From Escherichia phage phAPEC8, in the sequence record NC_020079.1: a stretch of 64,000 bases of DNA; one strand, written 5' to 3'. Shown here piece by piece: positions 58,904-61,355 of this stretch. The notes beneath the pieces were generated by a model that was not told the DNA's origin, ran no database searches, and was given only the letters and a program-made list of their open reading frames with translations. How positions within the stretch are numbered: the first letter of the stretch is position 1; each line of letters begins with the position of its first letter. Made by a program: the position numbers and the translations under genes.

Positions 58904-58938
58904 TTGACAAACGTATCCTTCATATGTTAGGATACGTT
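58904..58938 (+). promoter_or_regulatory. promoter (TTGACA) overlapped by 9-bp inverted repeat AACGTATCC..GGATACGTT
   Basis: hexamer and palindrome read directly. Confidence 0.5.
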
Positions 58939-59142
58939 CATCAAGTGTGGTAACAGGGTCGTTGACTTTTGTTAAGAGGGGCTTGCACTGCGGTAGTGTT
59001 AGAGACTACTTCTTCAGAGGTTAGCTACCAAAGAGGAAAAGGAATAGTCTCGGCTCAAGAACTTTTACGCTGAAAGTTGGGCTTGGTCTTAGAGAATGTA
59101 GCGGTTCTCTACAATCGTCAGCGTCTCTGTTACCACATTTAT

Positions 59143-59214
59143 GGCCCTGTAGCTCAATGGGAGAGCTGTCGGCTCATAACCGATAGGTAGCTGGATCGAA
59201 ACCAGCCAGGGCCA
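59143..59214 (+). tRNA. tRNA-Met (anticodon CAT)
   Basis: manual cloverleaf: acceptor GGCCCTG/CAGGGCC, loop CTCATAA, T-loop GATCGAA, CCA encoded. Confidence 0.75.
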
Positions 59215-59219
59215 CCAAC

Positions 59220-59291
59220 GTCTTTATGGTGTAATGGATAGCACAGGAGTCTTCTAAACTCTTAGTCAAGGTTCGATTCCTTGTAAAGACA
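59220..59291 (+). tRNA. tRNA-Arg (anticodon TCT)
   Basis: acceptor GTCTTTA/TAAAGAC, loop CTTCTAA, T-loop TTCGATT. Confidence 0.7.
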
Positions 59292-59528
59292 CCAGAACAT
59301 TTTAACATGAATTAGCTCAAGTGATTTGAACCCACTACTGATCATGGTGGCAGAGAATGAGGCAAGTATGTCAGACATTATAAACAAAGGCCACGGTTAC
59401 ATTAGAAGACATAAATGCTCGAAGAGCACCGTTCGTGGAGAACGGGGGTTGGTGGAGTCACCATTCATGGTAAAATGTTTTAAAAAACTATTGACAACTA
59501 ACATTATTTTATGTTAGATTATAAGTAT

Positions 59529-59616
59529 GGAAGGGCAAATCGACGTGGCGACGAAAACGGTCTTGAAAACCGCCGAGCTTGAAAGAGCCTTGGGAGTTCG
59601 ACTCTCCCTCCTTCCG
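59529..59616 (+). tRNA. tRNA-Ser (anticodon TGA), type II
   Basis: long variable arm; loop CTTGAAA; T arm GGGAG-TTCGACT-CTCCC. Confidence 0.7.
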
Positions 59617-59623
59617 CCAGATT

Positions 59624-59706
59624 GGTAGATTGGTGAAATGGTAGCCACGACAGTTTGCTAAACTGTAGTCGGAAACGGCGTGTAGGTTCGAGTCCTACAT
59701 CTACCG
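59624..59706 (+). tRNA. tRNA-Ser (anticodon GCT), type II
   Basis: acceptor GGTAGAT/ATCTACC; stem ACAGT/ACTGT loop TTGCTAA; long variable arm. Confidence 0.7.
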
Positions 59707-59836
59707 CCAAGTTGTTTTTAATGTAGCGTTGCGGCTACTTACTTTAGCAGAGTAAATCTTCGGCAAGTGGCGGTAACCACTTTACCGATACCGCATAGTC
59801 AGTAAGGCGAATACTGGCTACTTTAAAAACAATTTT

Positions 59837-59917
59837 GTGAGATTGGCAGAGTGGTCGATTGCGGGGGACTGTAAATCCCTTCTGAAAGGCGCGGTGGTTC
59901 GAATCCATCATCTCACA
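59837..59917 (+). tRNA. tRNA-Tyr (anticodon GTA), type II
   Basis: acceptor GTGAGAT/ATCTCAC; loop CTGTAAA; long variable arm. Confidence 0.7.
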
Positions 59918-59926
59918 CCAAATTAA

Positions 59927-60009
59927 GATGAGTTGGCTGAATGGTTTAAGCGGCGGACTGTTAATCCGTGTTCGAAAGAACGATATAGGTTCAAATCCTA
60001 TACTCATCG
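59927..60009 (+). tRNA. tRNA-Asn-like (anticodon GTT) with 15-nt variable arm
   Basis: anticodon arm GCGGA-CTGTTAA-TCCGT matches E. coli tRNA-Asn; extra GTTC-GAAA-GAAC hairpin in variable region. Confidence 0.55.
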
Positions 60010-60019
60010 CCAGAATTAT

Positions 60020-60096
60020 GGACTTGTAGAGTTAAGGTAAACCCCCAGTCGCCAAGAGGCTTCTGGAATTGCAGGTATCGAATCCTGCCGAGTCCC
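60020..60096 (+). tRNA. tRNA-like element, non-canonical, anticodon unresolved
   Basis: 7-bp acceptor GGACTTG/CGAGTCC and T-arm-like GCAGG..CCTGC, but no canonical anticodon arm and 8-nt T-loop. Confidence 0.3.
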
Positions 60097-60102
60097 AGCT
60101 TT

Positions 60103-60174
60103 GCTCCTATAGTATAATGGCTATTACAACGGTTTTGTAATCCGTGGATCTCTGTTCGATTCAGAGTGGGAGCA
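60103..60174 (+). tRNA. tRNA-Thr (anticodon TGT)
   Basis: acceptor GCTCCTA/TGGGAGC; loop TTTGTAA; T arm CTCTG-TTCGATT-CAGAG. Confidence 0.65.
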
Positions 60175-60452
60175 CCAACACAACATTAAGGGCACTGTGA
60201 TTGATCGTCGTATCCTGTGCACAAGGTCTGTTCGAAAGACAGTGTTCTTAGTATTGTGTTGATCACACAAAAAGAGTTACCTGAAACTTGACCGGAGTAG
60301 GGTTGGATGGGGCAAAAGAAGAAGCGGCTCTCCCATCGACAGCAACGAAGAATAATATTTGACTTTGGTTTTGTATTATTTTAAGTTAGCTTACCGAACG
60401 TAGGGCTAGTCACCCAACGGGATACTCGTCACTGTCCCACTCAATAAAACTA

Positions 60453-60483
60453 TTGACAACCAATAGTAAAATGTAGTATAGTA
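60453..60483 (+). promoter_or_regulatory. promoter (AACTATTGACAA ... TAGTAT) upstream of tRNA-Gly
   Basis: -35 TTGACA, 16 bp spacer, -10-like hexamer. Confidence 0.5.
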
Positions 60484-60493
60484 AAGATGTAGG

Positions 60494-60564
60494 GCGTTCT
60501 TGGTGTAGCGGTAGCATTCCGTCCTTCCAAGTCGGCGGCACGAGTTCGATCCTCGTAGAACGCT
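60494..60564 (+). tRNA. tRNA-Gly (anticodon TCC)
   Basis: acceptor GCGTTCT/AGAACGC; D-loop AGCGGTAG; loop CTTCCAA; T arm ACGAG-TTCGATC-CTCGT. Confidence 0.7.
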
Positions 60565-60666
60565 CCAAATTATTTAATAAAGGGTTGCCAGAAAACTTTC
60601 TCTTTTACTCATGGTTTTCTCCTTCTCTCACACCTCTTCTGGTTGCCCTTCATTAAATGATTTATT

Positions 60667-60739
60667 GGTTTGTAGTGTAGTCCGGTAGCACACGACACTT
60701 TGACTGTCGTAGGTTTGGTTCAAATCCAGACAGACCAGC
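60667..60739 (+). tRNA. tRNA-Gln (anticodon TTG)
   Basis: acceptor TGGTTTG/CAGACCA; stem CGACA/TGTCG loop CTTTGAC. Confidence 0.7.
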
Positions 60740-60834
60740 CATATAACAAAGGTGAGTCACTACCTCAAGTGTGAAGTTAAAAACGAGGAGCCGCCGAACA
60801 CTTTCTTTTGCGGCGTACCTTTAGAATGTTATGA

Positions 60835-60908
60835 CGGAATTTAGCTCAGTTTGGTAGAGTGTACGCTTTGGGAGCGTATTGTCGCAGGTTCGAATCCTGC
60901 AATTCCGA
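60835..60908 (+). tRNA. tRNA-Pro (anticodon TGG)
   Basis: acceptor CGGAATT/AATTCCG; D arm TAGCTCAGTTTGGTAGAG; loop TTTGGGA; T arm GCAGG-TTCGAAT-CCTGC. Confidence 0.8.
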
Positions 60909-60917
60909 CCAATTAAA

Positions 60918-60988
60918 TGTTTCGTAGTTCAATGGTAGAACCCACGACTGATAATCGTGAGATACAAGTTCGATTCTTGTCGAAACAA
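60918..60988 (+). tRNA. tRNA-Ile (anticodon GAT)
   Basis: acceptor TGTTTCG/CGAAACA; stem CACGA/TCGTG loop CTGATAA. Confidence 0.75.
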
Positions 60989-60993
60989 CCAGT

Positions 60994-61062
60994 TTCCCGT
61001 TAGACTTACAGGATAAGAGTTCCACAATTTATTGTGACGCTGGTTCGAATCCAGCACGGGAT
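60994..61062 (+). tRNA. degenerate tRNA-like element (possible tRNA pseudogene)
   Basis: 6-bp acceptor TCCCGT/ACGGGA and canonical T arm GCTGG-TTCGAAT-CCAGC, but anticodon region is a palindrome with no 7-nt loop. Confidence 0.3.
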
Positions 61063-61069
61063 ACATAAT

Positions 61070-61145
61070 AGCGGGATAGAGGAGTCTGGTCGTCCTCGCC
61101 AGTTTCATATGCTGGAGATCATTGGTTCAAATCCAATTCCCGCCT
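61070..61145 (+). tRNA. tRNA with CAT anticodon (Met, initiator or Ile-lysidine)
   Basis: D arm GAGG..CCTC; stem CCAGT/GCTGG loop TTCATAT; A1-C72 mismatch. Confidence 0.6.
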
Positions 61146-61355
61146 CCAAATATCGCTTGCCAGCGGTATCTTTGAAGACCTTGCCTGGTTCCTTCTAAGA
61201 TGGAGGGGTGCGACTCCTTAACGCACAATTATAATAAAGCATTTCAAATTAACAGTATTTATTAGCCTCCTTATTGGAGGCTTTTTGCTATCTATTGAAT
61301 AAAACTTGACTTATTATTTTTTATATGTTAAGATAAAGTTTAGGAGGATTTTATT

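Follow-up and report, generated by a model that had tools for sequence, protein, structure and literature searches.

The window analysed here, a stretch of 64,000 nucleotides of Escherichia phage phAPEC8 (NC_020079.1), contains a cluster of tRNA genes. ARAGORN finds 11 of them on the + strand from 59143 to 61148, all confirmed by Rfam, and a tRNA-Ser(UGA)-like gene brings the total to 12. The 2.1 kb around them (59100-61200) are 94-98% identical to Phapecoctavirus (Stephanstirmvirinae) myophages of E. coli. The gene studied here is annotated as tRNA-Asn in these relatives, as it is in the 97%-identical phage PNJ1809-36. It belongs to the run Ser-Ser-Tyr-Asn-(tRNA-like)-Thr, downstream of a sigma-70-like promoter sequence, TTGACA-18-TAGATT with TG, at 59491..59520 (+). 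Promoter-like sites occur at 58904, 59491 and 60453 and, with a terminator-like hairpin at 61264-61282, bracket the cluster; all of these are consensus matches only. Within the cluster the closest relative of the tRNA-Asn gene is tRNA-Tyr(GUA) at 59837..59920 (+), called by ARAGORN and Rfam.

ARAGORN places tRNA-Asn (gtt) at 59927-60012 (+), a gene of 86 nt including the encoded CCA. Rfam family RF00005 matches 59927-60009 over the full length of its model (positions 1-71) with 62 bits (E=2.6e-12), for a curated gathering score of 29 bits, and its alignment sets 12 additional bases apart as an insertion within the variable region. Model R1 scores 59927..60012 at 98.5 bits. The preliminary description had proposed a tRNA-Asn-like gene at this site, to be checked with ARAGORN and to be abandoned if a covariance model yielded a different anticodon. 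The check returned the same gene, and since ARAGORN and the Rfam covariance model both give GTT we rejected any other anticodon.

Read from the sequence, the tRNA has a 7-bp acceptor stem GAUGAGU/ACUCAUC (59927-59933 / 60002-60008), U8 and G9, a D stem GCU/AGC (59936-59938 / 59949-59951) of 3 bp plus G13.A22 with the D loop AAUGGUUU, and G26. The anticodon stem-loop (59953-59969) consists of the 5-bp stem GCGGA/UCCGU and the 7-nt loop CUGUUAA, with the anticodon GTT as positions 34-36 (59960-59962). The T arm AUAGG-UUCAAAU-CCUAU (59985-60001) has a 5-bp stem and a GTTC-type loop, which gives the standard 7/5 acceptor/T-stem geometry, and the gene ends with the discriminator G73 (60009) and the encoded CCA (60010-60012). 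Between the anticodon stem and the T arm lies a variable region of 15 nt (59970-59984), GTTC-GAAA-GAAC-GAT. It forms a 4-bp stem (59970-59973/59978-59981) capped by a GAAA tetraloop (59974-59977) and leaves 3 unpaired nucleotides on the 3' side (59982-59984). The minimum free energy (MFE) fold of the lone sequence is exactly the five-armed cloverleaf read by eye, and RNAalifold gives the same one; the canonical arms and the GTTC-GAAA-GAAC hairpin of the preliminary description are thereby recovered. Its remark that the anticodon arm is close to that of E. coli tRNA-Asn also holds. Nucleotides 26-43 (59952-59969, GGCGGACTGTTAATCCGT) are identical to the E. coli sequence, a reference found with 100% identity in 5425 E. 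coli genomes. The stretch 59927-60012, with GUU as its anticodon, G73 and its own CCA, is a true tRNA gene of the phage.

This tRNA has the class II traits of a variable region of at least 10 nt with its own stem-loop (here 15 nt, 4 bp and GAAA) and of a 3-bp D stem with a non-Watson-Crick 13-22 position (here G13.A22). Yet its anticodon is that of Asn, whereas this architecture is otherwise kept, as had been noted, for Leu, Ser and bacterial Tyr isoacceptors (PMC9976931, PMC3333845).

Some neighbouring RNAs are described here in their own right. The tRNA-Ser(UGA)-like gene (59529-59619, + strand, 91 nt) begins 9 nt past the promoter-like TTGACA-18-TAGATT. It is missed by ARAGORN, and at 59529-59615 Rfam reports tRNA-Sec only, with 37.4 bits, for a gathering score of 47 that it does not reach. 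Its elements are a 7-bp acceptor stem, the anticodon loop CUUGAAA, a GCUU-GAAA-GAGC variable arm, G73, CCA and a weak 27-43 pair, and a second tRNA-Ser is annotated within the cluster in some relatives. Directly downstream of the tRNA-Asn, and not part of it, a tRNA-like RNA (60020..60096, + strand) combines an acceptor stem of 7 bp and a T arm with the closed hairpin CCAG-UC-GCC-AAGA-GGC-UU-CUGG in place of an anticodon arm, and has no encoded CCA. It is homologous to, and aligns with, the T5 'rna3, putative tRNA-like RNA', which likewise follows the T5 tRNA-Asn; it also aligns with the equivalent spacer of phage EmilieFrey, where the sequence of the closed hairpin differs. Finally, a long hairpin (60186-60252, + strand, stem of about 14 bp) lies between tRNA-Thr and tRNA-Gly. 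No ORF of at least 30 aa was found on the + strand in 60178-60493, and by analogy with the small stable RNAs that are annotated among the tRNA genes of T5, the hairpin may be another of this kind. Its apex is the GTTCGAAAGA repeat (60230-60239). The preliminary description had seen a motif of the tRNA-Asn recur near 60231, and a second GTTCGAAAG copy does exist, but it sits at the tip of a different hairpin, unrelated to the tRNA-Asn arm, and its significance is marginal: GTTCGAAAGA occurs twice for 0.15 copies expected, and at least two copies appear in 2 of 100 shuffles, which is weakly above chance.

The extra arm across phages and cellular genomes

BLAST with the 86-nt gene retrieves full-length or arm-spanning relatives annotated as tRNA-Asn across several phage lineages. 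They occur in Justusliebigvirus (EmilieFrey), Seunavirus (PVP-SE1), the T4-like Moonvirus (Merlin) and Klebsiella T4-likes, the T5-like Epseptimavirus and Tequintavirus (26175IV, SHSML-45, Bas30), the Proteus Novosibvirus (PM135) and the 249-kb Enterobacter phage SonariX; the long-arm tRNA-Asn is present in T5-like, T4-like, rV5-like and phAPEC8-like phages. ARAGORN calls Asn(gtt) in 7/7 full-length homologues (83-86 nt). When these seven sequences, from four phage lineages, are aligned with MAFFT, the arm stems read GUUC/GAAC, GAAC/GUUC, GAGU/ACUC, GUCG/CGAC, AUCC/GGAU and GUC/GAC, and the loop is GNRA in every case. All 4 of the 4 arm pairs have changed on both sides while 100% of the cells remain paired, and RNAalifold predicts the five-arm cloverleaf from the seven homologues without guidance.

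We then built a covariance model from the seven homologues and searched it over 100 sources, i.e. the phAPEC8 stretch, six cultured-phage loci and 93 IMG/VR loci. The 45 top hits comprise 34 distinct sequences, with double compensatory changes in 4/4 arm pairs and 96% of arm cells paired. The whole structure is paired at 97% in this alignment, which was fitted to the covariance model and leans toward it, against 67% in shuffles, none of 500 being as high. Across homologue sets the pairing of stem cells is 97-98%. Position 13-22 is unpaired in 18 of the 34 long-arm Asn tRNAs. Among 97 unique long-arm sequences the variable region is most frequently 15 nt long, with a stem of 3-4 bp, and 58 of 93 arm loops are GNRA (42 of these GAAA). 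The 7-nt anticodon loop with U33, A37 and GUU, G73, the encoded CCA, the canonical T loop and G18G19 are kept family-wide. The 15-nt variable region is a structure maintained by selection, made of a 3-4-bp stem, usually a GNRA loop, and then 3-4 unpaired nucleotides. Since the arm covaries across phage families, we rejected the readings that the gene is a pseudogene or the hairpin a product of chance.

Members of the family are frequent among large virulent phages, and cellular genomes have almost none. A search of IMG/VR with the pattern GGACTGTTAATCC-N16-24-GGTTC finds it on at least 120 contigs, and among the matches listed on IMG/VR contigs 95 of 121 are Asn(gtt) genes by ARAGORN (79-91 nt), mostly within tRNA clusters. 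With the gap widened to 7-26, the long arm is found in 15 of 120 viral Asn genes among the matches listed, about 12.5% of the viral Asn tRNAs that have the same anticodon arm. In GenBank, a T5-like long-arm query is covered to 80% or more by at least 526 phage records, and a T4-like one by 334. The same pattern searched in one genome per species of 185,579 bacterial and archaeal species matches 64 stretches, of which about 20 are true long-arm Asn tRNAs and the remainder are chance matches or fragments. Most of the true ones lie within arrays of 7-36 tRNA genes (Micromonospora, Verrucosispora, Methyloprofundus, others). BLAST detects no long-arm Asn tRNA in 5426 complete E. coli genomes; the matches that it returns there are spurious, 34 nt long and in yobD only.

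Two groups of cellular loci have features of their own. In the chromosomes of the actinomycetes Micromonospora and Verrucosispora (L132, L133, L142, L182), long-arm tRNA-Asn genes of 89-90 nt with unusual D arms (AAACCGUAAUUGGUAUCGG) lie in arrays of 23-36 tRNA genes per 8 kb. In Saprospiraceae / Bacteroidota MAGs (L130, L147:5498-5794, L175), tRNA-Asn-like segments are repeated, partly in tandem with a 128-nt spacing; their variable arm is a hairpin of 7 bp (AUGCCGAUAGCUAUCGGCAU), their T and acceptor parts are truncated or odd, and ARAGORN calls no tRNA in them.

Extra arms are not confined to Asn, and the phenomenon is wider. Tyr-type variable-arm hairpins, mostly GNRA-capped, are also seen at IMG/VR loci in other phage tRNAs, namely Thr(UGU) (10/67), Cys (10/63), Trp (5/65) and Glu (4/73), for example at L020:4406-4492 (Thr), L060:1324-1407 (Cys) and L022:1347-1430 (Trp). 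A separate class of tRNA-Ile(UAU) genes, 91-96 nt long, has an extra arm with a 7-nt loop in 11 of 21 cases (e.g. L031:9355-9446). No variable arm was found in the 71 tRNA-Lys(UUU) genes sampled. The annotated tRNA-Lys(UUU) of PVP-SE1 (86 nt, L003:1354-1439) has the usual 5-nt variable loop; instead, the hairpin GAC-GCAA-GUC is inserted into its D loop, and its anticodon is mis-read by ARAGORN. It represents a second mode of adding a GNRA hairpin to the phage copy of a nuclease-targeted tRNA.

Amino acid identity and ancestry

In E. coli the identity of tRNA-Asn for AsnRS is set by the anticodon and G73, and the pair U1-A72 is the determinant of its transamidation (PMC9976931). The phAPEC8 tRNA has G34, U35 and U36 (59960-59962) and G73 (60009), and its first acceptor pairs are G1-C72, A2-U71 and U3-A70. 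G73 is found in 72 of 80 long-arm Asn tRNAs (90%) and U1-A72 in 55%, for 84% and 71%, respectively, in short phage Asn tRNAs. We propose charging by AsnRS because the anticodon and G73 are both intact, and these elements make Asn by far the most likely amino acid.

One might speculate that SerRS would also charge this tRNA by way of its long arm, G73, C11-G24 and G1-C72, placing Ser at some Asn codons, in parallel with the nematode nev-tRNAs, which are charged with Leu (PMC3333845). Ser identity is independent of the anticodon and depends mainly on the extra arm, G73 and acceptor pairs (PMC9976931). Judged from sequence alone, serylation might occur, because G73, C11-G24 and G1-C72 are common to Ser and the arm of phage tRNA-Ser(GCU) is equal in size (15 nt, 4 bp, GAAA loop); these shared determinants count against an Asn-only reading. 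The T5-like and T4-like versions even have both G1-C72 and G2-C71. But these two pairs are invariant among the tRNA-Ser of E. coli (PMC9976931), and the co-resident phage Ser tRNAs have G1-C72 in 87%, G2-C71 in 93% (97/104) and A3-U70 in 85% (88/104), whereas the phAPEC8 tRNA retains only the first, with A2-U71 and U3-A70 in place of the others. Family-wide, the acceptor stem is Asn-like and not Ser-like. The arm itself differs as well. In phage Ser tRNAs its stem has a mode of 5 bp (range 4-7) with 1 unpaired 3' nucleotide, in Leu 3-4 bp with 2 and in Tyr 3 bp with 3. This geometry separates the phage tRNA classes cleanly, and the long-arm Asn tRNAs, with modes of 3-4 bp and 3-4 unpaired nucleotides (4 bp and 3 in phAPEC8), are Tyr-like, not Ser-like. 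Furthermore, a host-identical anticodon arm matters only to AsnRS, modification and decoding, and a proteome-wide change from Asn to Ser would be costly to lytic phages in four families. We thus regard deliberate or tolerated mischarging with Ser as improbable. The identity elements speak against charging by TyrRS: this enzyme has two critical determinants, one of them A73 (PMC9976931), and this tRNA has G73 for A73 and, within the GUA anticodon set that includes U35, U36 for A36.

The Tyr-like geometry fits the main rival of a defence-related function. The arm might be a structural legacy with no special function, left from a class II tRNA remoulded into an Asn tRNA and tolerated by AsnRS. 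It would be kept only because a class II-type core (3-bp D stem, G13.A22) needs an arm to fold, and the tRNA would merely supplement Asn decoding in an AT-rich phage. The phAPEC8 tRNA-Asn is indeed 77% identical to the adjacent tRNA-Tyr, 72% to Ser(GCU) and 65% to E. coli tRNA-Asn; the adjacent tRNA-Tyr would need only A36->U and A73->G to acquire Asn identity; and both the arm geometry and the D arm are of the kind expected from such an origin. Similar arms are also scattered among the tRNAs for Thr, Cys, Trp and Glu, without an evident link to known nuclease targets. Asn codons are frequent in the phage, making up 4.84% of those in long ORFs of the window, at 39% GC, and codon supply is plausible whether or not the arm has a function against nucleases.

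Several observations fit this legacy less well. The Asn-type pair U1-A72 is found in more than half of the long-arm family, and the ancestry test, in which we sought the nearest neighbours of the 5' and 3' halves among 1637 other phage tRNAs, gave no consistent Tyr ancestry. Together these two results point to repeated acquisition of the arm, or its long retention, in bona fide Asn tRNAs. With the 3' part, short Asn tRNAs were enriched approximately 3-fold, the sole signal in results dominated by the composition of the comparison set. In addition, the strong viral over cellular enrichment requires a virus-specific advantage, and phages, with their compact genomes, seldom retain RNA elements of no use from one family to another. 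An arm kept purely as legacy is thus a possibility that we consider clearly short of probable.

A possible role against tRNA nucleases

Our best reading, about evenly poised between right and wrong, is that the gene would encode a functional tRNA that receives Asn from host AsnRS and is built on a class II scaffold, whose arm would aid escape from nucleases. As for its first part, the RNA is very probably transcribed, from the cluster promoter, then processed, charged with Asn by host AsnRS and used to decode AAC and AAU. As the anticodon stem-loop is identical to that of the host, the modifications that the host makes in the anticodon loop, Q34 and t6A37, and decoding should persist. Class II synthetases, AsnRS included, approach their tRNA from the variable-loop side. 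Hence the arm could hinder charging, which counts against a working tRNA.

The second part concerns the arm. It would project from the core beside the 3' strand of the anticodon stem and alter the shape read by tRNA-Asn nucleases, while the elements used by AsnRS and the ribosome would be left untouched. The phage would then retain an uncleavable Asn tRNA once the host copy is destroyed. The PARIS effector AriB depletes E. coli tRNA-Asn(GUU) and cleaves it at U36AAUC|C41, between nt 40 and 41, and an AlphaFold 3 model has the AriB dimer spanning the anticodon stem together with D-loop residues U16-U17 (PMC12409363). The cleavage-site sequence U36AAUCC41 is unaltered in the phAPEC8 tRNA, and nt 44, next on the 3' side to the anticodon-stem strand (39-43) with the cut site, is the first of the arm helix. 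Accordingly, we put forward only tentatively that the arm serves to evade, by steric means, nucleases directed at tRNA-Asn, for example PARIS AriB; this suggestion is somewhat more apt to fail than to hold.

Published work on PARIS touches on phage Asn tRNAs. The Lys, Thr and Asn tRNAs of T5 jointly neutralise PARIS, in a paper that makes no mention of the variable arm (PMC12409363). The T5 tRNA-Asn is a short class I tRNA of 78 nt, with a mutated or rewritten anticodon stem. We therefore rejected the rescue data as a test of the arm; for the same reason the amber-suppressor notes of the T5 record do not apply to the long-arm form. T5 (short) and its relative SHSML-45 (long arm) have unrelated Asn alleles at the same Cys-Asn-Asp locus, and in Bas30 the long-arm Asn tRNA also comes directly after Cys. 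This allele difference looks like turnover under selection.

Phage Bas34 (SelmaRatti) required the T5 tRNA-Asn for rescue (PMC12409363). Its own annotated tRNA-Asn (L299:14598-14681) is of the long-arm type, has 3 mismatches in the acceptor stem and is not called by ARAGORN. This copy is probably defective, maybe decaying, in which case the rescue of Bas34 says nothing on the arm. The state of this copy bears on how the published PARIS rescue with Bas34 is read.

Other observations count against evasion of nucleases. In phage Maynard the Asn tRNA is short, and its anticodon arm is the same as in the host. This allele shows that there is no clean either/or pattern, and we rejected a strict rule by which phage Asn tRNAs have either a mutated stem or an added arm. 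The lack of arms in the 71 tRNA-Lys(UUU) genes, Lys(UUU) being the best-known nuclease target, points the same way, as does their presence in tRNAs for Cys and Trp, neither known as a nuclease target.

One might also imagine that the RNA has a mainly non-decoding role. It could be a decoy or competitive inhibitor of tRNA nucleases or of a tRNA-binding factor, or else an element for the processing or regulation of the operon. Viral tRNAs, when overexpressed, might inhibit AriB by competition, as the authors of the PARIS study suggest (PMC12409363), and the tRNA-like RNA immediately downstream, the T5 rna3 homologue, is itself non-decoding. But the conservation of a perfect anticodon loop, GUU, G73, CCA, the T loop and G18G19 indicates selection for translation, and we consider a mainly non-decoding role very improbable.

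Large virulent phages might have an unrecognised set of "armoured" tRNAs of class I isoacceptors, in which a graft would block immune nucleases, a conjecture that we think more doubtful than credible. Asn would be the most frequent recipient, with Thr(UGU), Cys, Trp, Glu and Ile as further recipients. The graft would be a Tyr-type GNRA-capped arm, or a D-loop hairpin as in the PVP-SE1 tRNA-Lys. The recipients' synthetases would read mainly the anticodon and the discriminator, so that charging and decoding would stay intact, and PARIS AriB or OLD-family enzymes would be blocked sterically. If true, this would be a structural, not point-mutational, route in the evolution of anti-defence tRNAs. 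The conserved arm raises the question of whether the addition of a helix is a general means for phage tRNAs to evade tRNA-cleaving immunity, for instance PARIS, OLD, retron effectors or colicins.

Comparison with known kinds of tRNA

Textbooks reserve the long variable arm to Leu, Ser and bacterial Tyr tRNAs, where it serves as an identity mark for the synthetase. A conserved, covarying arm on the Asn tRNAs of hundreds of phages, including near relatives of T5 and T4, means that this rule is routinely broken in viruses. One may ask whether AsnRS, which as a class II enzyme faces the variable region, can accept a class II-shaped tRNA. The finding also has a bearing on annotation, on the engineering of orthogonal or nuclease-proof tRNAs and on the choice of therapeutic phages that resist abortive infection. 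The gene itself is already known and routinely annotated as tRNA-Asn; for its class II-like architecture we found no published description in the literature on PARIS, retrons, Schlafen, OLD, phage tRNAs and tRNA diversity, a survey that left older papers on tRNAs of the T5 group uncovered.

The closest counterpart in function is E. coli tRNA-Asn(GUU) (asnT/U/V/W), which shares the anticodon GUU, G73, nt 26-43 and the codons read. The long-arm family also has the same preference for U1-A72 and G73 as standard tRNA-Asn. E. coli tRNA-Asn has a 5-nt variable loop, AUGUC, where phAPEC8 has its 15-nt hairpin, and a 4-bp D stem where phAPEC8 has 3 bp and G13.A22, with G1-C72 at the end of the acceptor stem; the two are just 65% identical overall. 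The closest counterpart in shape is tRNA-Tyr(GUA), whose phage copy (59837-59920) shares G34, U35, the class II D arm and about 3 unpaired 3' nucleotides. It differs by A36 and A73, for U36 and G73 in tRNA-Asn, and GNRA loops cap only 4 of 48 phage Tyr arms against 50 of 75 long-arm Asn arms.

Other tRNAs combine a long arm with an unexpected anticodon. The allo-tRNAs reportedly described by Mukai et al. in 2017 are said to be bacterial long-arm tRNAs with varied anticodons, an 8/4 or 9/3 acceptor/T-stem and serine identity. They share with the phage tRNA the long arm on an anticodon other than those of Leu, Ser and Tyr, but the phAPEC8 geometry is 7/5 instead. The nev-tRNAs of nematodes belong to class II, have a Gly or Ile anticodon and receive Leu (PMC3333845, PMC4033280), and a 2014 review of tRNA diversity gives them as its sole case of a class I anticodon on a class II tRNA (PMC4033280). 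Their variable arm is likewise long, about 15-16 nt, and their anticodon likewise belongs to a class I family. Yet they are eukaryotic, nuclear-encoded, nematode-specific and poorly expressed, keep A73 and LeuRS elements and mistranslate, whereas the phage tRNA is viral and keeps the identity set of its own synthetase (GUU, G73, often U1-A72). Its phage origin and G73 place it outside the nev-tRNAs.

In its proposed benefit, the phAPEC8 tRNA most resembles the nuclease-resistant variants known from phages, i.e. the T5 tRNA-Lys, tRNA-Thr and tRNA-Asn that act against PARIS AriB (PMC12409363) and anticodon-loop variants (PMC10264068). These are likewise phage copies of tRNAs cleaved by host defences, and the phAPEC8 gene lies in a cluster beside Thr(UGU) and Tyr. 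The known variants, however, escape by substitution of single positions within the anticodon stem-loop or D loop, whereas in phAPEC8 the stem-loop is left identical to that of the host and the putative resistance would come from an added helix.
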